NCBI GenBank assembly: GCA_051294905.1
Contig: CM119371.1
Coordinates: forward strand, 7,318,001-7,382,000
Source: Botryllus schlosseri
Lineage: Eukaryota
Reading direction: 5' to 3'
DNA: 64,000 nt
The notes under the pieces are model-generated. The model made no database searches and was not told the DNA's origin. It saw nothing but the letters and a program-made list of their open reading frames with translations. The position numbers were made by a program, and so were the translations under genes. This document shows positions 20,521 through 61,425 of this stretch, in pieces. How positions within the stretch are numbered: position 1 is the stretch's first letter; each line of letters starts with the position of its first letter.

Positions 20521-22134
20521 CTATCTCTTCACAAATACGGATCTGTAAATCTCAAAACATCGATCCACTTTTGGTGTCACTATAAGCCATTTGTCTCGAG
20601 ATATATCATACATTTCAATTGCATTAGAGTTTTCGAAATCTGTTACTGCAAAAATCCACTTGTCAATGTGATACGCAGAAACTTGAAAATGACGATCATT
20701 CATAGAAGATAATGAAGTCCACTGAGCTGAAGTAACATTGTAACATTCTACGTTGTCGACATTCTTTGTTCCACTCCAGCCACCGATCACAAAAATCTTT
20801 TGATCAACTGCAACAACACCACTCCCATACACAGGATATCTCATTGGGTCAAGATCAACCCACTCTGATGAGGATGGAGTGAATCTGCAGAATGATGAAA
20901 CTATGACACCATCTTGTCCTATACCTCCAATACAATAGATGGAATCATTCAATGATACGAGACTTGCTGAACGAATAGCTGTAGGTTTGTGTTCAAGTTG
21001 AATCCATTGATTAACGAGCGAAGTGAACATTTCCACATCATTTGTTGCTCTAGTGCTTCCTCCAACAATGAATATCGATCCTGACAAAGAAACTGAGCGA
21101 GGACAGTATCCATGGTCACAAATCATATCTTTCATCCTTTCCCATTTTGAATTTTTGCTCTGAAAATTGAGTCGATAAACTGATTTATTGTTACATAAAA
21201 CGTAGATATATGAGTCCAAAAAAATCGCTGAAAAATCTCTTAAATCCCGAAACGTCTCGTCATGGAACTTCTCTACTTTCTCAATTACTGGATTGAAGGA
21301 TCTGATACAATCTGCCTGATCGTCAAAAAGAATTATCAATTCATCTTTGCTGATTTCTTCGTTTCTTTTCTGCGGTGCTTTCAACAGATGTCGAGTGATC
21401 AACTTGTACAGTCCTAAGTCGTTACTGATAATAAGGTTCGATTCTAAAAGACGTAAAAATGCCAAAGAGACTTTCTCAAACTTGATCGCTTCAAGACATT
21501 CGCGCAAATGTTCCTGATTTTTGCGATTTTTCTCGACCCAATTGAACAATAGCGTTAGTTTTTCTTCTTCGCATAATTTAGATCGTTCCAACTTCACAAA
21601 ATTCCGGATGTAAGTTTTTTCAATACTTCCAAATTCGGGTTGGCTTGATATTTCCATGATATTTTCATGGAAAAATGCTTTACATTGCGCAGAGACAGCA
21701 TCCAGTCCATACATATCGGCGATATTTGTTGTGGAAAAGTAATTCTTTACATTAAGTGATTCCTCCAAAACGCCAGATACTGCCTGTTTCACGTCTTCCA
21801 ACTGCATCATGATTGCAACATGTAGTAGATCGTTCATCTTTTCATCAGGAATCTCAAATTTGCCCGAATATATGAAATCGATGCAATTTTTGACACACTG
21901 AGAATCGACCTCTTTCAAAACAACTTTTCCTTCACGACTCTCTTTAGTGTCGTGTTTCAACATGGCTTTGAAATAAGCACTACCAGCCGACAATACATTC
22001 TTGTGAGTGTAATAGACATCATCTCCTACTTGAATTATGAAATCACATTGATCATTATCTTGCTTCATTCGATGTAATTCTTTCATCATCTCCACTGAAT
22101 GTTTCTCTACATTTGTACACACAATCTGCACCAT
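20521..22134 (-). CDS. Kelch-like protein (BTB-BACK-Kelch), paralogue K1, intronless
   Basis: BTB (CDFIIQV...HKNVLSAGSAYFKAM...CIDFIYSG), BACK (EEE...LFNWV), Kelch repeats with GG...Y...W pattern; first ATG at 22134 (track start is TTG). Confidence 0.93.
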   Translation of the reverse strand: MVQIVCTNVEKHSVEMMKELHRMKQDNDQCDFIIQVGDDVYYTHKNVLSAGSAYFKAMLKHDTKESREGKVVLKEVDSQCVKNCIDFIYSGKFEIPDEKMNDLLHVAIMMQLEDVKQAVSGVLEESLNVKNYFSTTNIADMYGLDAVSAQCKAFFHENIMEISSQPEFGSIEKTYIRNFVKLERSKLCEEEKLTLLFNWVEKNRKNQEHLRECLEAIKFEKVSLAFLRLLESNLIISNDLGLYKLITRHLLKAPQKRNEEISKDELIILFDDQADCIRSFNPVIEKVEKFHDETFRDLRDFSAIFLDSYIYVLCNNKSVYRLNFQSKNSKWERMKDMICDHGYCPRSVSLSGSIFIVGGSTRATNDVEMFTSLVNQWIQLEHKPTAIRSASLVSLNDSIYCIGGIGQDGVIVSSFCRFTPSSSEWVDLDPMRYPVYGSGVVAVDQKIFVIGGWSGTKNVDNVECYNVTSAQWTSLSSMNDRHFQVSAYHIDKWIFAVTDFENSNAIEMYDISRDKWLIVTPKVDRCFEIYRSVFVKR

Positions 22135-23459
22135 GATTGTCAATCAACCACGATATATAGGCTAATTATCCTACGATTATTATTATACAGTAGCACTGTT
22201 ATTGAAGTAAAGATAATTCTCAAGTAATGCCTGTTAAGCTGTTGGAATAATCATACTACTAATCAACACCACGAGTATGAATCGAAGGAAAGTCAACTGC
22301 AAACAAGGCACTAAACCAGGGGTTCTCAAAGGATGGGCCATGGCCCACCGGTGGACCACAGGAGTAATTTTAGGTGAGCCACAAAGCTATTTGGAAAATT
22401 GTACAATTAGTGAAAGTTTAGTTTTATTTGTTATGTTCCTATATTCAAAATAATAGTCATGTTATCATAATGCTTTTCATCCGTCTCTGATCAGTCACAA
22501 TGTACAGTCGACATAGCAGGGGAAATTGTGAGGGATACAACGTCTTTTTGCATGTATATTTAACTAGATATTTGTTATTTGATTCAAGATAAATGATCAA
22601 TTAATGTCTTTCGCACAGCTAGCAAAATGTAATGACTTTGAATCATCACTTATACTTTAAAAATTAAATTTAACTTGAATTGTGACTTCACTTGAATCGA
22701 GTGACCTTCAAAAAATGAGCGACTTGACTTGACTTAAGTCACGTTTGAAAATCAACTGACTTGACTCGAGTCAAAATCTGCAATGACTTGAGATGACTAG
22801 AAGGTAGTGACTTGATCCCAACACTGTTTGACTGTTGCTACTTGATGACTTGAAATTGACAAGTCATTTTACCAAAGTGACTTGAGTCAAGTCACGTAAT
22901 ACGAAAAACTTGAGTCATCCTAACACTGCCCTGCACTAACTCTAGTTTAAAAACACCAGAAGTGTCACCTCTGAATCCGACTAATCTCAACTTTCAACTG
23001 TTGCTAAGGCTACTGCTTATGTTTACATCTCTCGCGGACAGTAGGTGTCGCTGTAAACAAAAACATCGATTATATTCAGATGGAACGCTCCAATCTCCAT
23101 GCCAGGGCCAGCGAGGAGCGACGCTGTAAATTGCTATGGTTTGACCATAGTGTCCTATATGGTATTGACACAGCGAGAGTGAATGGCTCGCTGCATTTGG
23201 ATTACGTCATACTTTCCATTTGACCAAAGGCAACTTTACGGCCATTTTTGTCCGGATTTCCGAGCGTCAAATTCAATAGAACGGGTATCAATGGAAAGCT
23301 GCTTCTATACTGATTACGAAAATATAAATATGATTCTGTTCAGGGTCCTGGAACCCCCGAAATGAGCCTAGAAATTTGCATCGTTATGGAGTTTTGTCAT
23401 TGTGACGCAACAGGACTATCTGGCACTTCACTCTCGTTTTGGCAGACAGGATTGTTGGG

Positions 23460-25075: not shown

Positions 25076-25110
25076 CAGGGATATCTTGAAACTCCTTCTA
25101 GATATCCCTG
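25076..25110. mobile_element. 35 bp micro-MITE
   Basis: CAGGGATATCT...AGATATCCCTG hairpin with 8 bp TSD TTCTTCAT. Confidence 0.7.
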
Positions 25111-33396: not shown

Positions 33397-36300
33397 TAAT
33401 TAATACCCTTAGTCTTGGCAAGATGTTCGGCAAAAACTAAAAGGACGAGTTTACCCCTGAATCCAGTATACAAATATTTAGTGTTCTAGTCTAAACCTAA
33501 ACCATTTTGGCTTTTTTAGGCATGCACGTTAACAATTTATGGGTGATAAATATGATGAGTCACATAGTAATCGCAAGCACTGATTGAGTTGTTTTACAAA
33601 TTGGGGATTTGGAAACGTATCACGTATCAATTTGAAACACATGCCATATAATGCGTAATGTGACATTGTCAGGGTGACAATGGCAATGAAGAAGGTTTGA
33701 ACTAAACTATATGGAAAGAGTAACTTCTTGCGACTTCAACTGCTACTCATACTTTGCCACGTTGCCTTTATTTTGAATATGGATAACGCATGCGAGGTGT
33801 GTAGGCAATGTAATCGTGGCATATTATTGAACAGGCTCCAAAGTAGACCAATTTCCTGTTCATTTGATACATCCTACGATTTTAGTCCTGCAAAAAGCAA
33901 GTTTTATATTTTGAATTCCAAGCAACCTGTCGCGGTCCGCATTTGGCCCGCACTTTGCCCAGCTCTGTTCTATAGCATTGATGGCAAATAATCGAATCCG
34001 AAATTATTGATTTTGTAAATGAATAAATTCAGAATTACTCACTTTTATCTCCTGGATGGACTTGTCATACATTGATGCATGTCAGATTCCAACTGATCGA
34101 GGCTGAGATTGCAATGCAAACTTTTTTTATGACCAAAGCCATTTCCCATCCGACAACCAGACTATTAAACGATATGTTATCCGATATGATGATATTCTGA
34201 TTGCAATCCACTATAACAAAATGAAGAGTGGTTATGAAAAGTAAAATCAATGAATCTATATACACCAGTGGTTCTCAAACGCCGGTCCGCCAGGTATATA
34301 ATAACTTTATAAAGTATTTTTTAAATTTCATTCAATGCGGTTTGGCGTCACTAATTGTCTTGATTATTGGGTGCCCTTCCTTCCAGAAATACCCATGACA
34401 TATTGCAATAGGCATTCTGGTTTCAATCATTACCGCGCCACGACGCACCATCCCATAATGAAGTTTAGGCTAACATAGGACTCTGAAAAGAGTGCCGAAA
34501 ATTCGGCAGCGAGAAAACCTTGGCTGAAAAGGATTAGCCTTTGTTGACCGAAAACATCGATATATATATATATTGTCCATATGTGCTTAAACGGCTGTCA
34601 CCGAATCTCACTGTCCTGGCCATCTGTGCCTCACAGGACAAATGCCATCCCACAGAGAATAAAATTGTTTGCCAGCGAGCAAATACCACTTTGGAATCGT
34701 GTGCATCTTCTCACCCAGATCTACTGGAAAATCTGATAATTCTGAGATAATGAAAAATTGATATCAATATGTATGCAATTACCAATAGTATTGACCAACT
34801 CGATAATGAATTATAAAATATTTTCGCGCGAAAGCTACATAAACACTCTGCCTACACTGAGTAGAATGAATGCGCTCACAAGTACTGGGGAAAACATCCA
34901 TCAAACTGTGGGGAGGCCGTTTTTGGGGTGTGGGCTGACAAAGTGCTTTTTATGCGCTGATTTTATGGATGATCACTGATGACAATCGATGATAATCCTA
35001 GTATTATCCTTGATCAGTGGATAATCCGCGATTTATCAACGAAAAACTCACATAACTCCGCTTCTACTGGTCGGAATTGACTCAAATTTGTTTTGCAACG
35101 TCTTTGAAGACAGCTCAACAATTTCATGGGGTTGGCAGAAAAATTTGGAAATTTTGTTTTTTCAATTTTCCATAATAAATTAAAAATTTTAATTGGATCT
35201 GCGGAGTCCTATGCTTGTTAGAATCGAACCAAATTTGGTGTGCAGCGTTTTTTAGGGTAACCTGACAATTTAATCAGTGAATGGCTGGAATCCGGGAAAA
35301 AAAGTTATTTTTGAACAGCCCTATGATCAGGTACGGTATAGGTGTTATCATGCAGGTGTTTTCGTGCCGCATTTTTCATTCGTAGTAGGGTATCCTACGT
35401 TTTGTCGCAGACGGCAATCGCCAAGGTGGCACGACAAGGTACTTAGTTCTATTCCAAAACGCTTCATCTCTCAATATTGTCGAAGAGAAGAATATTATTC
35501 GTGTTGGCGTAGTCAACACGAATAATGAGCCGAGAGATTGTAATCGGGTGTAAGCTACTTCAGAAGCTTATCACATACTCCAAAAGATGCGACTGCTGAA
35601 TATGGGATATCGTAAATTACGACAAATATATCCATCAGAGGACATAGGAAAGTGTATCTTTATAAGAACAGTAATATATTTGAAATCGGCAATGAATCAC
35701 AGTAACATGCTTAATACTTGCTGCCGATTGCTGACACCGCCAGCGGGATACCCCTTACCACAATTCCAATTGGTGAAGGCATGAGGGGAAATTGAGATAA
35801 GGGATGAATAAGGGGGCATTAGCCTTCATAAACTACCCATTTTTGTTGGGGGGGGGGTTGATTAGGTAAAAATCATGCAATAGGCCAGACATATACTATT
35901 TCGTTTCAGTTTTACCCACTGCTCTCATAAACGCTTACCAAATAACCTCATTTACGAGGCATCATAAACAATAGAGGGTAAAGGCGTACAAAAAACTACA
36001 TCGTCCAAAGTTACTCCACATGCCGGGATAACTTTGGACACGGATAATTCACAAAAATGAGGTACTTATTTATGACCATGAAGATTCTGGATTAGTTAAT
36101 TCTAATCTTTGCTCCATGACTCCTGAAAAACACAAAACTTGCCTCCCCTACACCCTGGCATTTCCAAGATGCAAAGTGGAATTGTTGAAAATTGTCCGTA
36201 GTTACCCCAGTTTACGGTACTTATTCTTATACTCAGTAACTTTTTCGAGACAGCTAAGAGACTTTACTGCGGTCTCAGTGTGTAATTTTTATTGCATGAT

Positions 36301-38885
36301 TTCTTTGTCAGCTTGGAATGAGTAAATGCTGGATGTAAACGTAGGTACAGTGTAAATATTGGTGTGCTCATGTCACGGGAGATAGCATAGTGCTATGAAT
36401 ATCCATATCTGGATATGCCACAACTCACCTGAAGTCATCACGATTCCTGAAAATCGAGATCTTGTCTTTTGGCAGGTGACAAAGCCTGAAATAAAATCTT
36501 ATAATTGCACAGCCATTAAAAATAGACTTGATCACTTTAAGTCTTAAATGCAACAGTAAAAGTAAATATATGATCACCCAATCATCTTGAACTGTATAGA
36601 GCAGAGGTTCTTGAACACCGGCCCACCAAGTACATAAGAACTTTATGTGTATCAATTCCAAAACGCAAGAAGGCAAACCCTTGTTCATTATTGGAGAAAT
36701 GCACACCAAATGTGAAGTTGATTTGGAAGTTTGTAATGCATTTTCTGCATGGTGTCATAATAGGGAGTTCATGGTCCACGTTGGGCATAGGCCTACATAA
36801 CAATGGTGCAACTGTTGTACAAAACTGTTTGAAAGTAGCCTACACCTTCTGATAGGTTACATGTGAAAGCTACTGAGACTTTTAAATCACTTAATTAATC
36901 ACTTGTCAGTATAATAAAGACGACAGCAAACAGCAAAGTCGCCTTTCTTTTAGAGGATACTGAACACTCACAATCAAGTTACGGGTATGTAACAGGAATT
37001 TGCGAGCTTCGGCCACGGTCTCTAGTAACGAATACAGAGGCGTGCATGAATGTCTGTTTCCAAATGAGATTTCAAGGAGAAAATGAGACATGGGCAAGGA
37101 TAGCTAATAGCCATACCTCAATTGTTCTAGTAACAGGCACGTAAGGTCCATTCAGTTCCTACAAATTGGGGTAATAGCTTCAACGTAGCCTCAAATTGAA
37201 AACTGATATCATTATGTCAGTAATCAATTGTTAAATATTTGGGTAGGTTTGAATAGAATGTCGATTTACATCCTAATTGCGGATTGAAAATACGAAGCCA
37301 GATAAAACTTACCTTGAATGAAAATTGGTGACCTTGCTTGAAAGTTGCAACTTGTTTGACTCTGATTGAAAGAAAAATCCTGCCTGTGATGATAAATAAA
37401 CGATACTTCGTGATAGAAACGATTTAAAATTCGAACTTTGCAGTCACCAAATGTGTTGAGACTTGTTGCTACAGATTGAACTAAGATCGTTTATCGGATC
37501 GCGGTTGAGTTGAGTATAAACACCCCACTATAGCCTTGAAGGCAAATAATCGAATCCGAAATCATTGATTTTGTAAAAAGATAAACTCAGAATTACGGTA
37601 CTCACTTTTATCTCCCAGGTAGAATTTTCATAAATTGATGCATGTCAGATTCCAACTGATTGATAACGGTTGAGATTGTCATGGAAACTTCTTTTATCAC
37701 CAAATCCATTTCCCATCGGACAACCAGACCATTAAATGATACTTTATAAATTATGATCTTCCGATCGCAATTAACTGTAACAAAATGAAGAGTGGTTATG
37801 AAAAGTAAACTCAATGAATGTATAATTGTATTGTATATGCACCACAGGTTGTTCAAGCCTGGCTACTGTACCGGCATAAGTGGTAGCCTATATAACAAGT
37901 TGCCGATAGTCGCCTCATATAAACAGAATCGAAATGGTTTATTTTGAGAATACATACAAATTTGGTATCCTGATCATGGATAACGAAAAGCGAACGACTT
38001 TTTTCAATCAAGGTGTCCCCAAATTCGTCAAAAACAATCAAAAGAAAGATTTTATTATGCAGTAAAATATTGTTTGTGCAAGATTCTCATAAAATAAGAC
38101 GGGCATATGAACTTGTAACCCAGGGTTGCAATGACTCGAGTCATGACTCGAATCGAGTCCGACTTGAGTCACCATATTTTGGTGACTCGACTTGACCAGA
38201 GTCATTTTTTCAAAAGCGCAAAATGACTCGACTCGAGTCAATTTTTGTATTGACTCGACTTGTAGGCCTAATCGATTCATTGTGCACGACTCGAACCAAG
38301 TCATATGACTTGAAACTAGGACGGCCAAGACAGACATTTCATTGTAACTTGGAAAAATAGTAAAAGTCACCAAGTTATTGGTATTTCGTCTATTAGTCCT
38401 GATACTTGCGAAATGGGCCAGAAACTGATTGTACCGAGGAAAATTACAATATTATCATTATGAACGCGAACCATTCTATTTCACTCGAGCAGAGTTGAAA
38501 GAAGTGGGTTGGACCCGGTTGAACTGAAAAAACTGAACAGTAAACACAATGACTTTGAAGAGTGAATAGCTCGAAGCATATGTCGCATGCGGCTCAACTA
38601 GTATTGAGATAATTCTCGCTCATTTGAAATTTCCATGCATTGAGTCATTGTATGCTGTGGGGTATTTCATACTGAATTAGCGGAAGTGTGAAACTTGAAC
38701 CGCCTGCAGTAAGCAGTAGGTACAAACTTTGGATATTGGCCATGTAACCATTGTGGAAACAATTGTAGGCTACAAGTCATCAAAATCATTAACCATATCT
38801 ATATTGAGTAGGCCTAAGGAACTAAATATATGATTGGCTATGTCGACTATATCTACCGGCAAGATTATGCACTGTGGTACAATTA

Positions 38886-39356
38886 CTTACAATTACTTCC
38901 GCGTGTTGAGAAATCGTCCTCCCAGAAAAGTTTCTATTATATTGGTGCCGCTACCTGGAACTCTCTACCAGAAGACCTCAGAGATTTGCCCGATCATCTA
39001 TTTAAAAAACGTTATCGGAAATATATATCAGATAAGTATAATTGATAATATGCCGATTTTGCAACTACTGTCTCATTGTTGGAAAGTACCGTATAATCTA
39101 CTCTATTGACCCTTCTTCTGCACTGCTGTCTTGAAACTGTAATATTTATAGCTCGTGTATCCTTGTTGAATTTTTTTTCTCTGCTTTTCTTGTAGTTTTG
39201 TATATTTATTGTCATTTGTTTTGTGCCATTGAATATAATGTGTATACTCCTTCAGGTGGCGACTGTGTACTAAGGCCTTGCGGCCCCTCGTCGTCATCCT
39301 GGTCCGTACCGGATTTTCACTGGTGTGACAAATAAATGATTGATATATATTATTAT
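38886..39356 (+). mobile_element. 5'-truncated CR1/L2-group LINE
   Basis: ORF2 C-terminus KSFYYIGAATWNSLPEDLR...FKK; 3' UTR ending AATAAA + AT-rich tail; 11 bp TSD TGGTACAATTA (38875-38885, 39357-39367); absent from the paralogous site at ~59167. Confidence 0.85.
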
Positions 39357-41619: not shown

Positions 41620-42921
41620 GATTGTCAATCAACTACAATATATATTGATCCTACGATTATTATGATCTAGTAGCACTGTTATTAAAGTAAAGATGATTAG
41701 GTAGCTCAAGTAATGCCTGAACCAAGGATCATAATACTTATCAATGTCACAATTATGAATTGATGTGAAATCAACTACACACAAGTCGCAGTTGTAAGCA
41801 AACAGACAGGACAAAGGCGAGAGGAGAGACATTGAATTTCAAGCTTAATCTGAACACAGTCATGTCTTAAATTTAGTGTTGATATATTTATAAAAACCTG
41901 CTATGCCAAAGCAGCAGGTTCCACAAACAACAACCCAATATTATTCAAAACACTGATGCGAAGTGAAGATGTCAAACTATCTGTAGTAACCAAAGCGAAA
42001 GAATCAGAACTTCAGTACAATATCATCTATACATAGTAAGTATTAGAATATGCAACCTAAATTGCATATTTTCCCCCAAGTAAAAGGAGCCGTATTGTGG
42101 CTTTCGGAATAGTCAGGACTAACACATCTGCGAAATGCAGTGGTTCTTGACCTTTTCATGGATGCGGCCCAATTTTCTTTTCGCAAATATGCCATGATCC
42201 ACAACTCAGCCTCAATCTCTATCTAAGCGGCGGTAATATGGCAGGTTTAGAGAGGTGACCTATGTAATGGGTGTCACATCACAATTCCCTTGTCATTGAC
42301 CTAAGTTATTGTTTCAACTGAATAGCAGGTTGTAAATTCAGAAAGGGGCGTCAATGTCATTAACGAGCGGCACAGTGAAATTTTACGATTCGTCAAGGGG
42401 TATCCGGCCCTCGACTTAAACAACTAGAACTTTTCAGATTTTTCAAATTAGGGTAAAGTCTGAATAATAGCTACACTGTTTTTTTTCAAATGAAGGGTAA
42501 AATAAGAATTATAGCTAAACAGTATTTTCCAAACTACTTTAAAATTACAAATATAGTTACTTTTTTTTTCAAATTATATTCGAATTGCCGAGTCCACGAT
42601 AACTTGGACATTGAATCAAGTTCAGAGCAAGTCATAGTTGTGAGCACGATAAAGGCAAACCTTAGCTCGTTTCGAGCTATACAGTTCTTCTGGAGCATTT
42701 ACAGGAAAACCGGAAGTTAGATTAGAATAAAAATTAAAGCATAAAAACATTATTGAAATTAAATTAGTATTAAAGCAAGGACACATTTCACGAATTCGAC
42801 TACTTGCATTGCAACCTAATTGGTCAAATTGTACAACTAAAATTATGTAGTTGTCCAAGTAGGTCTGGACTCTGGACAGTCTCCGATTTTTTAGGTGAAC
42901 TGTTTGATTTGGAGTCCGACT

Positions 42922-50536: not shown

Positions 50537-52165
50537 CTATCTCTTCACAAATACTGATTTGTAAATTGGAAAACATTGATCGACCTTTGGCTTCCCTATA
50601 GTCCATTTGTCTTGCGATATATCATACTTTTCAATTGCATCAGAAGTTTTTCCATCTGTTACTGCAAAAATGCACTTGTCAATGTGATATGCAGAAACTC
50701 GATAATGACAATCATTCATAGAAGATAATGAAGTCCACTGAGCTGAAGCAACATCGTAACATTCTACGTTGTCGACATAATTTATTCCTCTCCAGCCACC
50801 GATCACAAAAATCTTTTGATCAACTGCAACAACACCACTCACACAAATAGGATATCTCATTGGGTCGAGATCAACCCACTCTGATGAGGATGGAGTGAAT
50901 CTGCAGAATGAAGAAACTATGACACCACCTGGTCCTTCACCTCCGATACAATAGATGGAATCATTCAATGATACGAGGCCTGCATCACATATCGCTGTAG
51001 GTTTGTCTTCTAGTTGAATCCATTTATTCAGGGGGGAAGTAAATATTTCCACAACACTTGTTGCTTTAGTATAACTTCCTCCAACAATAAAAATTGATCC
51101 CGACAAAGAAACTGAGCGAGGATAGTATCCATGGTCACAAATCATATTTTTCATCTTTTCCCATTTTGAATTTTTGCTCTGAAAATTGAGTCGATGAACT
51201 GATTTATTCTTACATAAAGCGTAGATATGTGAGTCTAGAGAAATCGCTGAGAAATGTTTTAAATTCGTAAACTTCTCATCGTGAAACTTCTCTACTTTCT
51301 CAGTTACTGGATTGAAGGATCGGATACAATCTGCCTCATCATCAAAAAGAAGTATCAATTCATCATCGCCAATTTCTTCATACTTTTTGTGCGATTCTTT
51401 TGGAGCTTCTAAAAGATGTCTTGTGATCAACTTGTACAATCCGAAGTCGTTTCTGATAATTTGGTTTGATTTCAAAAGACGCTCTAAAAATGCAGGAGAG
51501 ACTTTATCAAACTTGACCGCTTCCAGACACTTGTGCAAATGTTCCTGATTTTCCCCATTTTTTTCAACCCAATTGAACAACAATGTTAGTTTGTCTTCTT
51601 CACATAACTTAGATTTTTCAGACTTCACATAATTGAGGATGTTAGTTTTTTCAGTATTTCCAAATTCAGGTTGGTTTGATATTTCCATGATATTTTCATG
51701 TAAAAATGCTCTACATCGCGTAGAGACGGCATCCAGTCCATACATATCGGCGACATTTGTTGTGGAAAAGTAATTCTCCACATTAACTGATCCCTCCAAA
51801 ATGTCAGATACTGCCTGTTTCACGTCATCCAACTGCATCATGACTGCGACATGTAAAAGATCATTCATCTTTTCATCAAGAATCTCAAATTTACCCGAAT
51901 ATATGAAGTCGATGCAGCTTTTCACACACATAGAATCAACCTCTTTCAAAACAACTATTCCTTCACGACTTTCTTTGGTGTCGTGCTTTAACATCGCTTT
52001 GAAATAATCACAACCGGCCGACAATACATTTCTGTGAGTGTAATAGACATCATCTCCTACTTGAATTGTGAAATCACAATGATCGTTCTCTTGCTTCATT
52101 CGATGTAATTCTTCCATCATCTTCATTGAATGGTTCTCCACATTTGGACACACAATATGCACCAT
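50537..52165 (-). CDS. Kelch-like protein (BTB-BACK-Kelch), paralogue K3, intronless
   Basis: Same architecture; intact ORF; ATG at 52165. Confidence 0.93.
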   Translation of the reverse strand: MVHIVCPNVENHSMKMMEELHRMKQENDHCDFTIQVGDDVYYTHRNVLSAGCDYFKAMLKHDTKESREGIVVLKEVDSMCVKSCIDFIYSGKFEILDEKMNDLLHVAVMMQLDDVKQAVSDILEGSVNVENYFSTTNVADMYGLDAVSTRCRAFLHENIMEISNQPEFGNTEKTNILNYVKSEKSKLCEEDKLTLLFNWVEKNGENQEHLHKCLEAVKFDKVSPAFLERLLKSNQIIRNDFGLYKLITRHLLEAPKESHKKYEEIGDDELILLFDDEADCIRSFNPVTEKVEKFHDEKFTNLKHFSAISLDSHIYALCKNKSVHRLNFQSKNSKWEKMKNMICDHGYYPRSVSLSGSIFIVGGSYTKATSVVEIFTSPLNKWIQLEDKPTAICDAGLVSLNDSIYCIGGEGPGGVIVSSFCRFTPSSSEWVDLDPMRYPICVSGVVAVDQKIFVIGGWRGINYVDNVECYDVASAQWTSLSSMNDCHYRVSAYHIDKCIFAVTDGKTSDAIEKYDISQDKWTIGKPKVDQCFPIYKSVFVKR

Positions 52166-52476
52166 GATTTTCAATCATCCACAATATGCTATATAGAATG
52201 ATCCTATGATTATTATGATATAGTCAGGCACTGTTATTGAAGTAAAGATGATTAGTAGGGCGAATTTTTTTCACATGTCAAGAAGAGTCAAAATGGAAGC
52301 GTTATGTCAAAAATTGTGAACTTTTTTTTGACGTCTGCATTTCGTTTGTATTGAAATTGTCGGTAGGCCTACAATTGTAAACGGCTAATCGTCTGCTCAT
52401 TGTGAATCATAAACGGTCAAATGAAAAAAAATAGGTAGACATGGTATTATGGTCAATGTGCCGCAATATCCTAACT

Positions 52477-52796: not shown

Positions 52797-55700
52797 TCTA
52801 ACTGAAGAAAGACTTCTTGGGCATTGCATCATCCTTATATTGAGAAACGCATAATGAAAAATTGTGATGTAGACAACATTGTTAGAATGAAGTAACACGG
52901 TGTGTCACCAGCAGCGTACGCACAACTTGAGTGTTGTCAGCCAAAAACTGCTGCTGTTGAACGGCCTTGGCAAGTTTCTTAGTAAGGACATGCACTTTCT
53001 ATTCAAGAATATAGGAAAGTATCTCCCGTTGTACTACAAAGAATTTTAATTATTTCTATCATAATACAGAATGTAACCACTGGAATTCTTCATAGGGCCA
53101 GATTTCATTGAAATATTTTTTTTTGTTGAAGTAAAAAGTTGCCTGTATCTAAGCCAAAAACATTTTTCTCAGGCCAACCTTCGTTAGGACAGCCAGTTCC
53201 AACCAGAAATGAAGATAATTGTTACAATTTACATTATGTGGGAAAACACCTAATTTTCATTCATTAGTTCAAATGTTGGTAAAAATTCAGTTTGTTCAAT
53301 TCAAAAAAAGTCAAAATTATAATTTTTTAGGTCAAAATTTTCTTTTTAGGTAACAAAAAAAACGCCCCACTACTAAGCATTGGTCAGAAACGAAATTTAT
53401 GAAGTAGTCAATTAGCATGTGTCTAGTCTACATGCCCTTAGTCAAGTATTCAAGGACTAGGACTTGCAGTCTTTCTTAATCAAGTGTTCGACCCATGCAG
53501 CTGAGCTACACTACAAATATTTTCAATTTTGTCAAGTGGGAAGCAGCATTCGGTTATATTTACATCAATTTTACAATTTAACTAAACCAGACGATGTATT
53601 TACTCAGTCCCAGTATCATAGCATAATTACAAAAATTGTATCAATTTGTGACTGCATCACAAAGATGAATATTGCGATTTTCATGCTCTGTGCAAGTGAA
53701 TTGAATTTAAAAATGATTTCCAATTTTATCTATATCATTATTCATTACTATCATTGGCTGCAGCCTAATTTCCATCTAAGCGGCAGTAATATGGCAGGTT
53801 TAGGCCAAGCTGCTCATATCAAATCGGTTTCTTCTCATCGAGCACGAGAATGGCAAAGGTCCGTACCACAAGCTTAGCTCGTTTCGAGATATACAGTTCC
53901 TCCGCAGCATTTACGCGAAAACAAGAAATTAGATTAGAATTAAAACTGGAGCATAGAAACATTTCCCAAATTAAAGTAGAGTTAGAGCAAGGAAACATTT
54001 CACAAATTAGATTTCTGGCATTTCAATCTAATTAGTCTAATTATACAACTAAAATTATGTAGTTGCCCAAGTCTGTCTGGACGGTCTCTGCCTTTTTGGG
54101 TCAACTGTTAGTGTTTAATTTGGGGCTTTTTGTAACAAGTTCATCCTTGGCAACTTCGAAATTTTGTCGGTGTCTGATCCCGTCGTTGTGACAACCTGTG
54201 ACCCAGCGAGGGGGTCTGGGTTTTGAATTTTACGAATTCTTCGGTTGATTGGCTGCTTCGAGCTGCCACATTCTTACTCCCCTTGAAACGTCGCTCGGGT
54301 TTGGGCCAGTTCAGGTTCTCCTCAATCTGCGAAACATATTCAAGGGTTCAGTCAATACCAGTATTGGAGTCGCGGGATTTCAAGAAAGCATCTATCAGAG
54401 CTTAAGCAGTGCATACTTAGCTCTCAGAGCAACGTTGCAAGATCAGTTGACTGACTTGAACACTCTAAATTAGCTTGATAAAAATACCAACTATGGCACA
54501 ACAATGAACTACACCAGCGGTCTTAAATATTTTTCGTAATGGTAGGTACACCATTTTAAAGAAAGCTCAAAATTTCTCCGCGTCAGTTCACATTATTCAT
54601 CGAATCTGTAGCGATCTTAACCAGAAGAGGGATCTTACCCTGCTGCAATCCATCGGAAATGCTAATGCTACAAACAAATCAGCTTTCGACATAACTGAAT
54701 CACAATTGAACACAGTGGTTTTCAACCAGAGTCTACGAAACATTATTAGGAAACCGCGATCCGATTGATAAATATAATTTGTGATATTGGAAGCTAGGGT
54801 AGACCAACACAAACCCAGCTCTCTGCACCGTCCAGCCAGATTCTAGGTTTCAAGTACCCTATGTATTTATAAATGATTCTCAAAACTACTTACAAAATTC
54901 ATCAATTTTCAAAGACAGCACATTCTTCTTCCACCTGTAGTCACAGGCTACTTCTGGGTTGCTTGGAATAACATTACTTCTACTTCACTACTTATACTGG
55001 AGTGAACTTTGCGGTGGTACTTTTACTTGTGTAACTTTTGTGAGCACTTTTGATTATGCCTGTGGGCTCATTCAATTGCGGATACGGTAGTTATTCTTAT
55101 ACTCAGTAACTTTTTCGAGACAGCTAAGAGACTTTACCTTCGTCCCAATTTACCGCGGTCTCAGTGTGCAATTTTTATTGCATGATTTCTTTGTCAGCTC
55201 GGAATGAGTAAATGCTGGATGTAAACGTAGGTAGAGTGTAAATATTGGTGTGCTCATGTCACGGGAGATAGCATAGTGCTATGAATATCCATATCTGGAT
55301 ATGTCACAACTCACCTGAAGTCATCACGATTCCTGAAAATCTTGATATAGAGGTCTTGTCTTTTGGCAGGTGACAAAGCCTGAAAGAAAATCTTATAATT
55401 GCACAGCCATTAAAAATAGACTTGATCGCTTTACGTCTTAAATGCAACTTGGATATAAGAACAGTAAATGTAAACATTTGATCACCCGATCATCTTGAAC
55501 TGTATAGAGCAGAGGTTCTTGAACACCGGCCCGCCAAGTATATTAAAACTTTATGTGTATCAATTCCAAAACGCAAGAAGGTAAACCCTTGTTCATTATT
55601 GGAGAAATGCACACCAAATGTGACGTTGATTTGGAAGTTTGTAATGCATTTTCTGCATGGTGTCATAATAGGGAGTTCATGGTCCACTTTGGGCATACAT

Positions 55701-56526
55701 AACAATGGTGCAACTGTTGTACAAAACTGTTTGAAAGTAGCCTACAACTTCTGATAGGTTACATGTGAAAGCTACTGAGACTTTTAAACAAACTTCCTCG
55801 ACTTCCGACAGTGCAATTAATCACTTGTCAGTATAATAAAGACGACAGCAAACAGCAAAGTCGCATTTCTTTTAGAGGATACTGAACATTCGCAATCAAG
55901 TTACGGGTATGTAACAGGAATTTGCGAGCTTCGACCACGGTCTCTAGTAACGAATACAGAGGCGTGTATGAATGTCTGTTTCCAAATGAGATTTCACGGA
56001 GAACATGAGACACGGGCATGGATAGCTATTAGCTATATCTCAATTGTTCTAGTAACAGGCACGTAAGGTTCATTCAGTTCCTACAAATTGGGGTAATAGC
56101 TTCAACGTAGCCTCAAATTGAAAACTGATATCATTATGTCAGTAATCAATTGTTAAATACTTCGGTAGGTTAGAATAGAATGTCGATGTAGCCTACATCC
56201 TAATTGCGGATTGAAAGTATGCAGCCAGATAAATTTTACCTTGAATGAAAATTGGTGAACTTGCTTGAAAGTTGCAACTTGTTTCACTCTGATTGAAAGA
56301 AAATTCCTTCCTGTGATGATAAAAAACGATACTTTGCGATAGAAACGATTCATAATTCGAACTTTGCAGTCACCAAATGTGTTGAGACTTGTTGTTACAG
56401 ATTGAAATAAGATCGTTTATCGGATCGCGGTTGAGTTGAGTATAAACACCCCACTATAGCCTTGATGGCAAATAATCGAATCCGAAATCATTGATTTTTT
56501 AAAAAGATAAACTTAGAATTACAGTA

Positions 56527-57902
56527 GGGGAGACCGGGGACAAATGTAACTAGGGGCAAATGTAACAATCGACCTCACCGCTAGTAGGATGGAGAAATCA
56601 GCTTGATATTTTAAGTGCGCATGCAGTAGTTATCTCTCCTATTATACCTGGAGTTACGTTGAGCTACGATGCGAAACCCCGGAATAATTTGCAAAAAACG
56701 AAATTTTTGACCCTTGAGTAAAGTTTTTCTGGTCTGGAATAATTTGTCTGGACGAATAGTACCTCAAGTAGTTACAACGTAATATGTGTAGCTGGAACAA
56801 TGTTACTATAGTCTACCGTGGTGATGGAAAGAATAGGACTTGCATCGCCGGGAAGGTACCATACTGAGACAGTAATCATGGTCGAGCGTGTCAGGGGCAA
56901 TCGTAACACTCTGTTACTTTTGCCCCGTTACAATATGTTATCAATTCTGAATGTATTTGTTCATATGTTGGTATTACCATTCATCTACTGCAGAATAATC
57001 TTGCAACAGCCAGAAGTTCACCAGAACAGATACTGCCTTGCGATACCAATTCTAACATGATCATCGGTAGAAACGGCCATACAATAGTGGTGATGTGAAT
57101 CTGACGGTTCGGTTATTTTCGTGATTCAACCACCCTTTCTCATGTTGATCGACTTTTGGTGTGTCGAACTTCAATAGTCATGTCTTAATTCTCGTCCTCT
57201 GACTTTGATCATGGCCTACTTACATTTTGATATTTGATGTGAACAATTTATGTTAATTTTCTGCAGCACAGATAAATGTCATTAGAGCTTTGACGCCACA
57301 CAATGTTGCGTCCTCGTTTTACTATACTATCATCGGCCCATTCAACCAAGATATGTTAGCCAGGTCGGTTTCGCACCTTCGCAGGTGACCGAATGACCAA
57401 CCCATTATGCCCGCTGAACAACAGAACCTTGGTAGAAGAGGCCGAATATGTGTAGGGAGATGATGGAATGAATGTGTCTCTTGTACACTTTAAGCTTGAA
57501 CAAGACACGGAGGGTGATATTGCATTCAGATGCCATAAATGCGATGGGGTGTAGCCTGGAAGCGTTCAAACGTCTCTTCCTTTAGTTTCATGCAACGTTA
57601 CAATTTGTGCTTACGTTTTCGTTGTTCATTCAGTTTGTGTTTAGTTATAAATAACACTGTTACAATTGCCCCGTAAGGGTGGTACAATTGCCCCTGGGTA
57701 CGGGGCGATTGTAACATTTGAGCAGCGATTTTTGCGACCCAAAATTTCCATGATTGATTGTTGATTGAGTTCCAATTTAGTTTTCATATCAACTATAGAG
57801 TTGTTGGCTTCTTTATATAAAACTTTGGAAGTGAAATTTCCACGAGAAGAACACGTAATGTTGGAAAATACGAAAAGTGTTACAATTGTCCCCGGTCTCC
57901 CC
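56527..57902. mobile_element. Tc1/mariner-pogo-type non-autonomous element
   Basis: TIR GGGGAGACCGGGGACAA(A/T)TGTAAC; TA TSD; empty paralogous site at ~37599. Confidence 0.88.
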
Positions 57903-59799
57903 TACTCACTTTTATCTCCCAGGTAGAATTTTCATAAATTGATGCATGTCAGATTCCAACTGATTGATAACGGTTGAGATTGTCATGGAAACTTCTTTTA
58001 TCACCAAATCCATTTCCCATCGGACAACCAGACCATTAAATGATACTTTATAAATTATGATCTTCCGATCGCAATTAACTGTAACAAAATGAAGAGTGGT
58101 TATGAATAGTAAACTCAATGAATGTATAATTGTATTGTATATGCGCCACAGGTTGTTCAAGCCTGGCTACTGTACCAGCAAAAGTCGTTGCCTATATAAC
58201 AAGTTGCCGATAGTCGCCTCATATAAACAGAATCGAAATGGTTTATTTTGAGAATACATACAAATTTGGTATCCTGTTCGTGGATAACGAAAAACGAATA
58301 ACTTTTTTAATCAAGGTGTCCCCAAATCCGTCAAAAACCATCAAAAGTAAGATTTTATTATGTAGTAAAATATTGTTTATGCAAGATTCTCATAAAAGAA
58401 GATGGGCATATGAACTTGTAACTTGTAACCCAGGGTTGTAATGACTCGAGTCATGACTCGAATCAAGTCCGACTTGAGTCACCATATTTTGGTGACTCGA
58501 CTTGACCAGAGTCATTTTTTCAAAAGCGCAAAATGACTCGACTCGAGTCAATTTTTGTATTGACTCGACTTGTAGGCCTAATCGATTCATTGTGCACGAC
58601 TCGAACCAAGTCATATGACTTGAAACTAGGACGGCCAAGACAGACATTTCATTGTAACTTGGAAAAATAGTTAAAGTCACCAAGTTATTGGTATTTCGTC
58701 TATTAGTCCTGATACTTGCGAAATGGGCCAAAAACTGATTGTATTAAGGAAAATTACAACATTATGAATGCGAACCATTCTATTTCACTCGAGCAGACTT
58801 GAAAGAAGTGGGTTGAACTCAAAACTGAACAGTGAACGCAATGACTTTGAAGAGTGAATAGCTCGAAGCGTATATCGCATGCGGCTCAACTAGTATTGAG
58901 ATAATTCTCACTCATTTGAAATTTCCATGCATTGAGTCATTGAATGCTGTGGGTTATTTCATACTGAATTAGCAGAAGTGTGAAACTTAAACCGCCTACA
59001 GTAAGCAGTAGGTACAAACTCCTGATATTGGCCATATAACCATTTTGGCAACAATTGTAGGCTACAAGTGATCATAATCATTGACCATGTCTATATTGAA
59101 TAGGCCTAAGGAACTAAATATATGATTGGATGCGTCGACTAAATCTACCGGCAAGATTATGCACTGTGGCACAATTAATGAAATATATTTCCACAAAATT
59201 ACTGGTTACTATTGCTATTACGTTCATCAAATGATACGAATTTACCAAAAAGCAGTTTACACTTGACAAATTACTGCCGCATTGAAATAAAAATGCACAA
59301 TTTTCAATGGATTTATGATGGATATGGATTGAGGAATTGAAAATATCAAATGTGAGAAACTTTACATTCATTCATGTCGAAGCTGCAGACTTGTACAAAC
59401 TACTAATGGAGTCACTTCGACGGTCAAGACTAGTTCTAATTACCGATTTTGAAAGCGAATAGTTGTAGCGTTGATATTAGTGTGAATACCAACAGTGGCA
59501 TAGTCATGAGTGGGATGAAAACCGTTACATTTCAAACTATTAACAAAATTCTTCTTAAACGCCGATTCTATCCCCGATATTTTCGAGCTCATTTCCAATT
59601 CAGTAATTCACATTATCAGTACTGCAGTTGCTTCAGAATTGAAACTACTAAGTTGTTTTTATTTGCCAGTTACGGATTTTTAAAGCATGTCAATTGTATT
59701 TCTAGTAGCCAGTTTTGAAAAGTGAGTGGTTCTAGTTCTAGGTTGAGTTGCATTTTGAAAATCCAGTAATTTGAACAAGTCTGCTCAGGTGAGTGCAAT

Positions 59800-61425
59800 C
59801 TATCTCTTCACAAATACGGATGTGTAAATTCGACAACATTGATCCAATTTTGGCTTAACTATAGTCCATTTGTCTTGCGATGTATCATACTTTTCAATTG
59901 CATTGGAGGTTTTAAAATCTGCTACAGCAAAAATCCACTTGTCAATGTGATAAGCATAAACTCGGCCATGACAAGCATTCATAGAAGCTATTGAAGTCCA
60001 CTGAGCCGAAGAAACATCGTAACATTCTACTTTTTCAAATTCCGTTATTCCTCTCCTGCCACCGATCACAAATATCTTCTGATCAACTGCAACAACACCA
60101 CTCTCATAAATAGGATATCTCATTGGGTCGAGATCAACCCACTCTGATGAGGATGGAGTGAATCTGCAGAATGATGAAACTGCGAAACCATTTCGGCCTA
60201 TACCTCCGATACAATAGATGGAATCATTCAATGATACGAGACTTGCTGAACGAATCGCTGTAGGTTTATCTTGTAATTGAATCCATTGATTCGCGAGGGA
60301 AGTGAACATTTCCACATCATTTGTTGCTATAGTGCTTCCTCCAACAATAAATATCGATCCTGACAAAGTAACTGAGCGAGGACGCCATCCATGGTCACAA
60401 ATCATATCGTTCATCCTTTCCCATTTTGAATTTTTTCTCTGAAAATTGAGTCGATGAACTGATTTATTTTTACATAAAACGTAGATATATGAGTCCGAAG
60501 AAATCGCCGAGAAATCTGTTAAATTCGTAAAATTCTCATCATGAAACTTCTCTACATTCTCAGTTACTGGATTGAAGGATCGGATACAATGTGCGTTATC
60601 ATCAAAAAGGATTATCAATTCATCTTTGTCAATTTCTTCGTTTGTTTTCTGTGATGCTTTTGAAGCCTTCAAAAGATGTCCATTGATTAACTTGTACAGT
60701 CCTAAGTCGTTACTGATGATTAGGTTTGTTTCCAAAACGTGTTCTAAAAACGCAGGAGAGACTTCATCAAACTTGATTGTTTCAAGAAATTCACGCAAAT
60801 GTTCCTGATTTTTGCTATTTTTCTCGACCCAATTGAAAAATACCGTTAGTTTTTCTTCTTCACATAACTTAAATTGTTCTAACTTCACAAAATTGAGGAT
60901 GTTCGTTTTTTCAACCTTTCCAAAATCCGGTTGGTTTGATATTTCCATGATATTTTCAAGAAAAAATGCTCTGCATCGCGTAGAGACGGCATCCAGTCCA
61001 TACATATCGGCGACATTTCTTGTGGAAAAGTAATTCTCTACATTAACTGATTTCTCCAAAACATCAGATAGTGCCTGTTTCACGTCTTCCAACTGCATCA
61101 TGATTGCGACATGAAGAAGATCATTCATTTTTTCATCAGCGATCTCAAATTTGCCTGAATATATGAAATTGATGCAGTTTTTCACACAATGAGAATCGAC
61201 CTCTTTCAAAACAACTTTTCCTTCACGACTCTCTTTAGTGTCGTGCTTTAACATGGCTTTGAAATAAGCACAACCAGCCGACAATACATTTCTGTGAGTG
61301 TAATAGACATTATCTCCTACTTGAATTATGAAATCACAATGATCGTTTTCTTGCTTCATCCGATGTAATTCTTCCATCATCTTCACTGAATGTTTCTCTA
61401 CATTTGGACACACAATCTGCACCAT
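59800..61425 (-). CDS. Kelch-like protein (BTB-BACK-Kelch), paralogue K4, intronless
   Basis: Same architecture; intact ORF; in-frame ATG at 61425. Confidence 0.93.
   Translation of the reverse strand: MVQIVCPNVEKHSVKMMEELHRMKQENDHCDFIIQVGDNVYYTHRNVLSAGCAYFKAMLKHDTKESREGKVVLKEVDSHCVKNCINFIYSGKFEIADEKMNDLLHVAIMMQLEDVKQALSDVLEKSVNVENYFSTRNVADMYGLDAVSTRCRAFFLENIMEISNQPDFGKVEKTNILNFVKLEQFKLCEEEKLTVFFNWVEKNSKNQEHLREFLETIKFDEVSPAFLEHVLETNLIISNDLGLYKLINGHLLKASKASQKTNEEIDKDELIILFDDNAHCIRSFNPVTENVEKFHDENFTNLTDFSAISSDSYIYVLCKNKSVHRLNFQRKNSKWERMNDMICDHGWRPRSVTLSGSIFIVGGSTIATNDVEMFTSLANQWIQLQDKPTAIRSASLVSLNDSIYCIGGIGRNGFAVSSFCRFTPSSSEWVDLDPMRYPIYESGVVAVDQKIFVIGGRRGITEFEKVECYDVSSAQWTSIASMNACHGRVYAYHIDKWIFAVADFKTSNAIEKYDTSQDKWTIVKPKLDQCCRIYTSVFVKR

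Follow-up and report, generated by a model that had tools for sequence, protein, structure and literature searches.

A tandem family of single-exon BTB-BACK-Kelch genes in Botryllus schlosseri with positively selected propeller loops, a probable repertoire of Cul3-receptor-like proteins

We analysed a 64-kb stretch of DNA (the window, C1:7318001-7382000 of the 495.5 Mb Botryllus schlosseri assembly GCA_051294905.1, contig CM119371.1). Four genes, K1 to K4, were detected (Table 1), and the CDS of each is one uninterrupted ORF, with introns possible in the UTRs. The sequence-only reading had described four intact intronless paralogues, and all of them were found at the positions it gave, on the minus strand, each encoding BTB, BACK and Kelch. 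The BTB domain (PF00651, E about 1.7e-20 to 2.9e-22), the BACK domain following it (PF07707, E 5.9e-12 to 4.2e-14) and the Kelch repeats (PF01344, Kelch_1, E about 1e-21 to 1.4e-28) were identified by Pfam in 4/4 proteins. K2-K4 are 80-81% identical to K1 and the mean column identity of the 4-way alignment is 88%; every conserved string and variable patch quoted in that reading is present in this alignment as written. A tblastn search of the 64-kb window detected no fifth copy or pseudogene.

Table 1. Features of the four BTB-BACK-Kelch genes and their flanks (positions in the window).
Feature	Position	Strand	Basis or remark
K1 BTB-BACK-Kelch gene	20521..22134	-	intact single ORF, 537 aa (stop included)
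K1 BTB	aa 22-126 = nt 21757-22071	-	Pfam
K1 BACK	aa 135-228 = nt 21451-21732	-	Pfam
K1 six-blade propeller	aa 265-536 = nt 20527-21342	-	Pfam + AF2 model (24 strands)
K1 conserved proximal upstream block (~95 nt)	22135..22230	-	4-way alignment, 29-locus conservation
K1 3' flank / putative 3' UTR	19775..20520	-	common to K3 flank 49797-50536
K2 intact paralogue	39991..41619	-	ORF 542 aa; Pfam; 4-way alignment
K2 conserved proximal upstream block	41620..41715	-	alignment, 29-locus conservation
K2 duplication unit (gene + ~3.8 kb 3' flank)	36213..41700	-	self-blastn, homologous to K4 unit
K3 intact paralogue	50537..52165	-	ORF 542 aa; Pfam; 4-way alignment
K3 conserved proximal upstream block	52166..52261	-	alignment, 29-locus conservation
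K4 intact paralogue	59800..61425	-	ORF 541 aa; Pfam; 4-way alignment
K4 conserved proximal upstream block	61426..61521	-	alignment, 29-locus conservation
K4 duplication unit	55083..61513	-	self-blastn, homologous to K2 unit

The conservation over 29 loci shows that about 95 nt of upstream sequence with a TATA-like element is kept per copy, and the upstream homology among copies stops 84-170 nt beyond the ATG. The K1 element, ATAATAAT, lies ~45-50 nt before the ATG, and the K1 block is a candidate core promoter with a short 5' UTR. AATAAA-like signals were found in the family consensus ~400 nt past the stop. The K2 and K4 units are 91-94% identical in the flank versus 87.9% in the CDS region (self-blastn). 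The closest paralogues of K2 are 373-729 kb distant, and that of K3 lies at 733 kb with 1.2% nucleotide divergence. The DNA between the genes is repeat-rich. A Harbinger pair lies nearby, outside the array; with this pair excepted, no transposase, reverse transcriptase, integrase or viral domain was detected in the 44 intergenic window ORFs of at least 90 aa.

In the genome search with K1 (561 first-look candidates), 81 candidates were scored, and all 81 match K1 at E <= 1e-203. Fifty-three of the 81 loci lie within C1:6.54-7.55 Mb, an array of ~1 Mb with at least 53 loci, and 45 of these are intact and full-length, the other 8/53 being broken, truncated or rearranged. The copies are in one orientation, spaced 7-89 kb apart, and share multi-kb unit homology. 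The family motif has 73 exact matches genome-wide (0 for the control), 24 of them at loci beyond the 81 scored, giving a lower bound of at least 105 loci, so that the copy number is larger than the four window genes first noted. Relatives outside the family are at most 54% identical among 1.84 billion representatives. The loci count, the broken copies and the distance of the outsiders characterize a large lineage-specific, tandem-clustered family with birth-and-death turnover; K1-K4 are members of this lineage-restricted single-exon BTB-BACK-Kelch family.

Two bulk RNA-seq runs of unspecified tissue and stage gave almost no reads on K3 or K4. None of the 13 matched reads in run X21 (~12% read, 12.8 million records) belonged to K3/K4, and in run X24 (~6% read) the K3/K4 CDS depth was 0.05-1.0, with 1563/1589 matched reads fitting only partly.

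The AlphaFold (AF2) model of K1 (pLDDT 89.8) has helices and strands fitting the BTB fold at residues 9-125 and an all-helical segment at 132-256, in which the 3-box is assigned by position only. The C-terminal part was found to be a six-bladed Kelch beta-propeller by Pfam Kelch_1, the AF2 model (24 strands in six four-stranded blades with C-terminal strand closure) and Foldseek. The PDB sequence matches of K1 include full-length KEAP1 (E 2e-40) and KLHL12/2/3/20, and K1 aligns with the KEAP1 BTB-BACK over residues 10-229. Over the full length, Foldseek ranks chains of KBTBD2-CUL3 and KLHL22-CUL3 highest; the propeller alone superposes on KLHL12/KEAP1 with TM 0.82-0.85 (KLHL12 TM 0.84, rmsd 2.7-3.0). 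A conserved Cul3 is present in the Botryllus genome, and one of its exons shares ~93% identity with residues 34-89 of human CUL3.

Column entropy across the 45 intact array copies peaks at HG-YC-P, GG-I..GVI, PVY-G-S, GG-W..TKN, DRH-FQ and D-F-EN, the same patches that had been noticed in four sequences, and variable columns hold up to 15 different residues. Selection was analysed in 44 array copies by custom codon-likelihood code (not PAML or HyPhy), with fixed FastTree branch lengths, a single scale factor and sites called by NEB instead of BEB. The pooled dN/dS was 0.39 overall, 0.35 for BACK and 0.53 for Kelch; the BTB, proposed earlier as part of a constant E3-recruiting module, is under strong purifying selection (0.18), and 170/538 codons are significantly negatively selected. 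M2a was favoured over M1a with 2dlnL of 570 (3 partition trees), 449 (6) and 333 (18), its positive class covering about 4-7% of codons with omega2 3.5-4.6. Site models after recombination partitioning, the check suggested for the loops, thus gave omega > 1 at a small codon set, robust to the partitioning.

Recombination in the array is strong (PHI z = -7.7, 0/500 permutations as low); segment trees raise lnL by ~1180, and the copies L022/L025 are mosaic. Null simulations with block-wise trees and heavy recombination (n=4) gave 2dlnL of 54.6, 44.7, 21.2 and 57.1 versus 452.7 for the real data; by chi-square these nulls would pass as significant, with spurious omega2 of 2.0-2.5 and 1-4 false positive sites per null (3 replicates counted) versus 20 in the real data. 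Recombination therefore inflates the M1a/M2a test. In the site-wise test 20 sites came out as positive at p<0.05, and 11 of these hold at q<0.05. The site-wise test supports 11 of the 20 NEB sites (p<0.05); site 405 is borderline (p 0.051), and sites 204, 262, 361, 456, 458, 484, 500 and 528 fail it (p 0.17-1.0); some of the NEB sites lacking site-wise support also show high synonymous change. Pairwise comparison without a tree gives nonsynonymous differences of 0.55-0.69 at the top sites, 2.3-2.9x the global synonymous value (0.237), and between L037 and L040, a recent pair, there are 13 nonsynonymous versus 2 synonymous changes. These data show a small codon set under positive selection on a scaffold constrained by purifying selection.

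In Kelch proteins the DA and BC loops define the substrate pocket, according to the available text of Canning et al. 2013 (PMC3597819). With strand and loop classes defined from the AF2 model alone, dN/dS was 0.33 for strands, 0.35 for bottom loops, 0.85 for top loops and 1.33 for B-C loops. The propeller holds 16 of the 20 NEB sites (7, 204, 211 and 262 lie outside), and these selected sites cluster on one face as predicted earlier: 13 of the 16 are in the B-C/D-A (top) loops and the other 3 at the ends of strands next to those loops, and the bottom loops have none (Fisher p 3.9e-4 versus the rest of the propeller, 0.014 versus bottom loops). The pooled top-loop dN/dS is not above 1 (bootstrap 0.63-1.10), and selection therefore falls on some of the loop positions rather than on whole loops. 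Arg (3.7x) and Trp (2.3x) are over-represented at the selected sites. Since the selected codons are almost only in the B-C and D-A loops, nearly every copy has its own top-face signature (unique over 16 sites in 43/44 copies). The placement of the selected sites in this model is consistent with predicted ligand binding on the top face.

Not all patches named in the sequence-only reading are supported one by one: within IRSAS (387-391) and DRHFQ (480-484) the site-wise test backs no codon. The core proposal of that reading, selection for new ligand specificities on a constant module, is supported by the selection tests and by the clustering on one face, but not for the loops as a whole, nor for every patch.

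Our preferred explanation, which we consider probable, is a Cul3-receptor-like repertoire of at least 105 loci with a constant scaffold and a diversifying pocket facing fast-evolving targets. The family grew by tandem and segmental duplication and is reshuffled by gene conversion, and the selection results show about 10-20 codons driven to change while BTB, BACK and the propeller strands are held constant. By homology to KEAP1/KLHL/KBTBD, each protein would dimerise via the BTB and dock Cul3 via the BTB and 3-box, and the individual propeller pocket would recruit a particular target for ubiquitination by the ligase. In that case the array would be a repertoire of Cul3 substrate receptors encoded in the germline. 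The selection pattern suggests that the targets evolve fast, pointing to genetic conflict. As to the driver, our tentative first choice, short of an even chance, is non-self or selfish proteins (pathogen, parasite, transposon), with reproductive or germline conflict a possible driver as well and the remainder left to other or unknown drivers.

The same Cul3-adaptor mechanism could be driven by reproduction, the family being a KLHL10-like germline or testis family shaped by sperm competition, sexual conflict or meiotic drive, a reading that we judge possible but rather unlikely. Tandem amplification and positive selection are common in male reproductive genes, and the near-zero RNA-seq reads would fit tightly restricted expression. 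The best named full-length relatives found are annotated KLHL10; however, their identity (21-22%) is too low for an orthology claim and the candidate search was word-limited. In the termite Zootermopsis nevadensis 37 BTB-BACK-Kelch (KLHL10) genes are read as spermatogenesis-related in the accessible part of PMC4348803, but the termite-type SINA co-expansion is absent here, with one SINA locus. Because of the KLHL10-like affinity and this termite precedent (PMC4348803, as far as its text was available), a reproductive or germline-conflict role is as live as an immune or anti-parasite role.

A Cul3-independent function, with the BTB serving for oligomerisation only and the propellers being scaffolds, decoys or cytoskeletal binders, is improbable. 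Some Kelch proteins bind actin, and in the alignment to KEAP1 Thr-63 of the family falls where the Cul3 clamp of the BTB alpha3-beta4 loop has its hydrophobic residue, a position presumed to be important for the clamp. This residue is Phe-130 in KLHL11 and Met-233 in SPOP, according to the same available text (Canning et al., PMC3597819). However, at least 90% of 66 aligned relatives keep the Glu of the aligned x-E motif (Glu-65), the full BTB, 3-box/BACK and Kelch layout is the hallmark of Cul3 receptors, the closest full-length structures are Cul3-bound, and the purifying selection on BTB and BACK in all copies is as expected for a common conserved partner.

That there is no adaptation, unconstrained loops and gene-conversion homoplasy mimicking omega > 1, seems very unlikely to us. 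The strong recombination, the inflated nulls and the pooled top-loop value would suit it, but the real 2dlnL exceeds every null 6- to 20-fold and persists with 18 block-specific trees, the real data hold several times the sites of the nulls, and the excess of nonsynonymous difference at the top sites is tree-free. Moreover, the bottom loops are equally exposed and have 0 NEB sites, and neutral loops would not pick one face. Just as hard to credit is a silent, decaying segmental-duplication array or a mobile-element or virus cargo, compatible with the scarce reads, the broken loci, the intronless genes, the repeats and the nearby Harbinger element, but opposed by 45 ORFs of ~540 codons open at dS ~0.29, by scaffold dN/dS (0.18-0.35) and constrained codons incompatible with pseudogenes, by the lack of mobile or viral domains in the 44 intergenic window ORFs other than the Harbinger pair, and by the single orientation and unit homology, as in tandem duplication.

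The probable Cul3-receptor-like family shares the three-domain layout, the fold and the six-blade propeller with the vertebrate KLHL/KBTBD Cul3 receptors (KEAP1, KLHL12, KLHL2/3/20, KBTBD2, KLHL22). Most vertebrate KLHL/KBTBD genes are conserved single-copy genes with several exons at dispersed loci, whereas the Botryllus family has at least 105 single-exon copies, megabase arrays, a positively selected pocket and Thr at the clamp position. In the vertebrate proteins the binding face is likewise formed from the B-C and D-A loops (available text of PMC3597819). The identity between the two groups is only 17-25%.

Teleost finTRIM and primate TRIM5-type genes are intracellular E3-linked families with duplication and positive selection in the B30.2 target-binding loops, and an antiviral role is documented for TRIM5. 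They resemble the Botryllus family in being E3-linked and loop-diversified, the link in Botryllus being a predicted one, but use a RING ligase and another binding fold, whereas a Cul3 adaptor is predicted here. Poxviruses carry multigene BTB-Kelch families, which similarly have tandem Kelch-propeller arrays whose surface loops vary on a constant scaffold; the Botryllus genes, unlike these, lie in the chromosomes of an animal genome of 495 Mb, with a megabase span and 7-89 kb spacing.

Adaptive expansion of nematode and plant cullin adaptors (F-box, MATH-BTB) was reportedly described by Thomas in 2006, and related papers include PMC8120010 and PMC4091423. These families share with Botryllus lineage-specific tandem clusters, birth-and-death turnover, purifying selection on the docking domain and positive selection on the substrate-binding domain. 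The Botryllus family differs in its variable module (a Kelch propeller, not MATH, FTH or FBA), in the animal lineage and in being intronless. The termite offers another lineage-specific BTB-BACK-Kelch multiplication with KLHL10 as nearest named relatives (37 genes versus 10 in Macrotermes, in the accessible part of PMC4348803), and that part of the article reports no site-specific selection or propeller-face mapping. According to the same text, the termite genes are accompanied by a SINA expansion (33 genes), whereas Botryllus combines at least 105 loci with a single SINA locus.

The window was found to carry four intact paralogues on the minus strand, K1 to K4, as the sequence-only reading had proposed: open reading frames, Pfam matches (BTB, BACK and Kelch repeats in all four genes alike) and alignment agree with its gene positions, and the conserved strings and variable patches that it quoted were all recovered verbatim in the four-way alignment, where K2-K4 are 80-81% identical to K1. 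The coding region of each gene is one open reading frame, with introns possible in the UTRs, and tblastn detected no fifth copy or pseudogene in the window.

Features of the window and of the surrounding array; positions are those of the window, or of its contig where prefixed C1
Feature	Position	Strand	Remarks
Inverted repeat pair	5771-6136 / 7620-7253		94% identity
Inverted repeat pair	7610-8479 / 9613-8744		98.6% identity
Transposase ORF, DDE_Tnp_4	10131-11228	plus	365 aa, intact; Pfam E 8e-35
Myb/SANT-like DNA-binding ORF, PF13873	12564-12947	minus	Pfam E 9e-20
K1	20521-22134	minus	537 aa, single ORF
Candidate selected sites outside the propeller	~21349-22116	minus	K1 residues 7, 175, 204, 211, 234, 262
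Upstream sequence of K1 and K2	22231-22300, 41716-41785
K2 unit	36213-41700		matches K4 unit
K2	39991-41619	minus	542 aa, single ORF
High-depth intergenic stretches	44668-45334, 52672-53338, 63344-64000
K3	50537-52165	minus	542 aa, single ORF
Upstream sequence of K3 and K4	52262-52331, 61522-61591
K4 unit	55083-61513		matches K2 unit
K4	59800-61425	minus	541 aa, single ORF
Array copy L043	C1:6707039-6708646		coding sequence identical to L044
Array copy L044	C1:6851876-6853483		145 kb from L043
Array copy L022	C1:7059284-7060909
Three consecutive array members (7172157, 7192032, 7218266)	C1:7172157-7219882	plus
Array copy L025	C1:7551495-7553120		492 kb from L022

The tandem array claimed from these four genes proved to be much larger. 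In the assembly (495.5 Mb, 219 contigs), where the window spans C1:7318001-7382000, a six-frame search with K1 as the query gave 561 first-look candidates in all, and the 81 that were scored all match K1 at E <= 1e-203. Of these 81, 53 lie at 6.54-7.55 Mb of C1, nearly all on the same strand and with a median spacing of 19.4 kb; 45 of the 53 are intact and full-length (536-551 codons, identical start position), and eight are broken, truncated or rearranged (four with premature stops, two that break off near codon 395, one whose N-terminus is replaced, one divergent edge copy). More clusters, at 60-73% identity, were detected on C1 (13.9, 14.7-15.7 and 35.9-36.2 Mb) and on contigs C3, C4 and C14. 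Searching with a family-specific motif pattern yielded 73 exact matches against 0 for the reversed control, and since 24 of the 73 fall at places absent from the protein-search table, the family comprises at least 105 loci genome-wide. The nearest proteins outside the genome, among 1.84 billion representatives searched, are 54%, 48% and 46% identical; the next shell consists of full-length relatives (~540 aa, 27-34% identity), and the best named relatives are KLHL10-like, at ~21%.

Homology between units extends beyond the open reading frames: the K2 and K4 units are 91-94% identical in the 3' flank and 87.9% in the CDS region. The ~95 nt upstream are the sole 5' sequence common to all copies and contain the ATAATAAT element ~45-50 nt 5' of the ATG, and AATAAA-like signals lie within the conserved 3' region; judged from sequence, the former block is a putative promoter and the latter signals are putative poly(A) sites. 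Past the ~95-nt block the upstream sequences are of two types, one common to K1 and K2 and the other to K3 and K4, so the array may contain at least two promoter-distal classes.

Within the array, divergence shows no relation to distance (Spearman 0.006), the closest paralogue is the immediate neighbour for only 3 of 45 copies, and the nearest relative of K3 lies 733 kb away at 1.2% nucleotide divergence. Gene conversion among the copies is evident: the PHI statistic stood 7.7 SD below the permutations, with 0 of 500 equally low, and three segment trees beat a single tree by ~1180 lnL units. The 16 codons that separate L022 from L025 are all confined to codons 1-113, and the remaining ~430 codons are identical, a clear gene-conversion or recombination mosaic. 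The identity of L043 and L044 is explained by a segmental duplication of very recent date or else by a duplication in the assembly. The three plus-strand members, standing amid an otherwise minus-strand array, suggest an inverted segment of ~50 kb or more.

Selection was analyzed in 44 array sequences over 538 codon columns, each filled in at least 40 of them. Three copies were left out: L021 for its premature stop, L032 for its replaced N-terminus and L044 for its identity to L043. Pooled pairwise dN/dS (dS 0.285) was 0.39 for all codons, 0.18 for BTB, 0.35 for BACK and 0.53 for Kelch. Likelihoods were computed with self-written GY94-F3x4 pruning code, using FastTree branch lengths multiplied by one scale factor. 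M2a was preferred over M1a with three segment trees (2ΔlnL 570, p2 4.1%, ω2 4.6), six segment trees (449, 4.1%, 4.2) and 18 block trees of 30 codons (333, 6.9%, 3.5). Because recombination invalidates the chi-square reference, null data were simulated under M1a with a new tree per 30 codons and passed through the same six-segment pipeline: four replicates gave 2ΔlnL of 54.6, 44.7, 21.2 and 57.1 against 452.7 for the real data, and the three replicates counted had 1-4 positively selected codons at NEB > 0.95 against 20. A site-wise grid (FUBAR/FEL-style, synonymous rate variable) scored 20 of 538 codons as positive at p<0.05, of which 11 passed q<0.05, and another 170 as negatively selected; the mixture test on this grid gave 2ΔlnL 173 with segment trees. 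The excess over the recombination nulls and the site-wise test support the positive selection predicted earlier, at a small set of codons.

Eleven of the 20 NEB sites (7, 211, 273, 296, 315, 343, 344, 411, 437, 453, 457; K1 numbering) are also positive site-wise at p<0.05 and form a firm core set of selected codons; site 405 is borderline in that test, and eight (204, 262, 361, 456, 458, 484, 500, 528) are without its support. The strongest, 343 and 344 (YC of HGYCP), 437 (G of PVYGS) and 453 (W of GGWSG), carry 10-14 different residues across the 44 copies. The recent pair L037/L040 shows 13 nonsynonymous versus 2 synonymous differences, and two further recent pairs show 11:9 and 5:11. The candidate sites outside the propeller sit in the N-terminal tail, BACK helices and linker, and their support varies by method. 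Two other measures were set aside: the 3' flank as a neutral yardstick (p-distance 0.345 vs 0.206 at four-fold sites; gappy alignment, r = 0.18 with four-fold divergence), and the dN/dS of 1.5-1.9 at entropy-selected columns, whose circularity is the reason for using likelihood tests and structure-defined classes.

The AlphaFold2 model, built on a 66-sequence alignment, has a mean pLDDT of 89.8 and pTM of 0.54, with low confidence only at residues 1-3 and linker 254-262. DSSP assigned 24 propeller strands to it, that is, six four-stranded blades, with strand 528-536 closing blade 1. The best full-length Foldseek matches are KBTBD2 and KLHL22 chains of Cul3 complexes, and the propeller overlays those of KLHL12 and KEAP1 with TM 0.82-0.85. 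A four-stranded antiparallel blade has its A-B and C-D loops on one face and its B-C and D-A loops on the opposite one. According to Canning et al. (PMC3597819), the B-C and D-A loops, here called top loops, determine the substrate pocket.

Residues 265-536 were classed from the model alone. The 104 top-loop residues have a pooled dN/dS of 0.85 (bootstrap 0.63-1.10; B-C 1.33, D-A 0.61), the 38 bottom-loop residues (A-B, C-D) 0.35 and the 130 strand residues 0.33. The selected sites cluster on one propeller face, which had been set beforehand as a check: 13 NEB sites fall in top loops and none in bottom loops, while the three in strands (453, 458, 528) are strand ends adjoining top loops. Top-loop enrichment holds against the rest of the propeller (Fisher p 3.9e-4 for the six-segment NEB list, 1.7e-4 for the 18-block list, 0.005 for the site-wise list); against bottom loops the p values, in the same order, are 0.014, 0.0099 and 0.12. 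Selected sites are richer in Arg (3.7x), Trp (2.3x), Glu and Gly, the blade-5 B-C loop ranges from 3 to 12 residues, and the 16-site signature is unique in 43 of 44 copies.

Reads of four sequencing runs were mapped on positions 44001-64000 of the window, where K3 and K4 lie. RNA-seq run X21 (~12% read) gave 13 mapped reads, none on K3 or K4; X24 (~6% read) gave a depth of 0.05-1.0 across both CDSs, with 1563 of 1589 mapped reads matching only in part. X1 and X3 were rejected as RNA; both look like DNA, because intergenic repeats are covered as well. The mapping argues against broad high expression and is compatible with restricted expression or silence; purifying selection on 45 open reading frames speaks for the proteins being produced somewhere. 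In read and contig depth the high-depth intergenic stretches rise far above their surroundings in X24 and X1/X3, nearly all their reads run on into unlike sequence, and they are probably expressed or high-copy repeats.

By architecture and fold K1-K4 are BTB-BACK-Kelch proteins. The genome has a conserved Cul3 gene, and in the KEAP1 alignment Thr-63 occupies the place of the hydrophobic Cul3-clamp residue, followed by a conserved Glu-65; Cul3 docking and substrate capture by the family are putative. One possible, if rather unlikely, role for the array would be that of a germline-encoded receptor set, in which over 100 intracellular Kelch propellers, every one with a pocket of its own, take rapidly evolving targets, foreign or selfish (proteins of viruses, parasites or transposons), to Cul3 for ubiquitination. 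If true, this would be a so far unrecognised kind of innate recognition system in animals, comparable to TRIM5/finTRIM and the nematode F-box/MATH-BTB repertoires but based on propellers. Of the sequence-only interpretation the evolutionary core is supported; its biochemical and biological parts remain proposals.

A serious rival is that reproduction drives the diversification. A termite study (PMC4348803) reports 37 KLHL10-type BTB-BACK-Kelch genes for Zootermopsis nevadensis and 10 for Macrotermes, ties them to spermatogenesis, and describes an accompanying expansion of SINA; a SINA co-expansion of this kind was looked for in the present genome and is absent. A mobile-element or viral origin of the array was rejected, no such domain occurring in intergenic ORFs except the Harbinger pair: among 44 of at least 90 aa, the sole Pfam match is the Myb/SANT ORF, outside the array.

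This Myb/SANT ORF and the transposase ORF make up a two-ORF PIF/Harbinger-type element upstream of the array, adjoined by long near-perfect inverted repeats; the nearest proteins to the transposase are HARBI1-like (41-56% identity) from many animal phyla, including echinoderms, arthropods and molluscs. Rfam gave zero matches in the window.

In the searchable full-text literature, which mostly excludes subscription journals, we found no account of a BTB-Kelch array in an animal whose propeller face is under site-specific positive selection. For the largest Cul3-receptor class the family amounts to a clean natural experiment, with more than 100 near-identical scaffolds differing almost solely around the substrate pocket, and a ready panel of natural pocket variants for Kelch-ligand specificity studies. 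Finding its targets would reveal how Kelch pockets get re-tuned, whether non-nematode animals employ Cul3 receptors as a recognition repertoire, and which conflict (pathogen, transposon or germline) is the driver.

Adaptively expanding cullin-RING adaptor families are generally viewed as systems of intracellular surveillance or conflict; to our knowledge the well-studied cases are few, namely nematode and plant F-box and MATH-BTB proteins and vertebrate TRIMs. Adaptive cullin-adaptor expansion of the F-box/MATH-BTB type was reportedly described by Thomas in 2006. The Botryllus array behaves in evolution like these nematode and plant expansions, but its variable module is the Kelch propeller.
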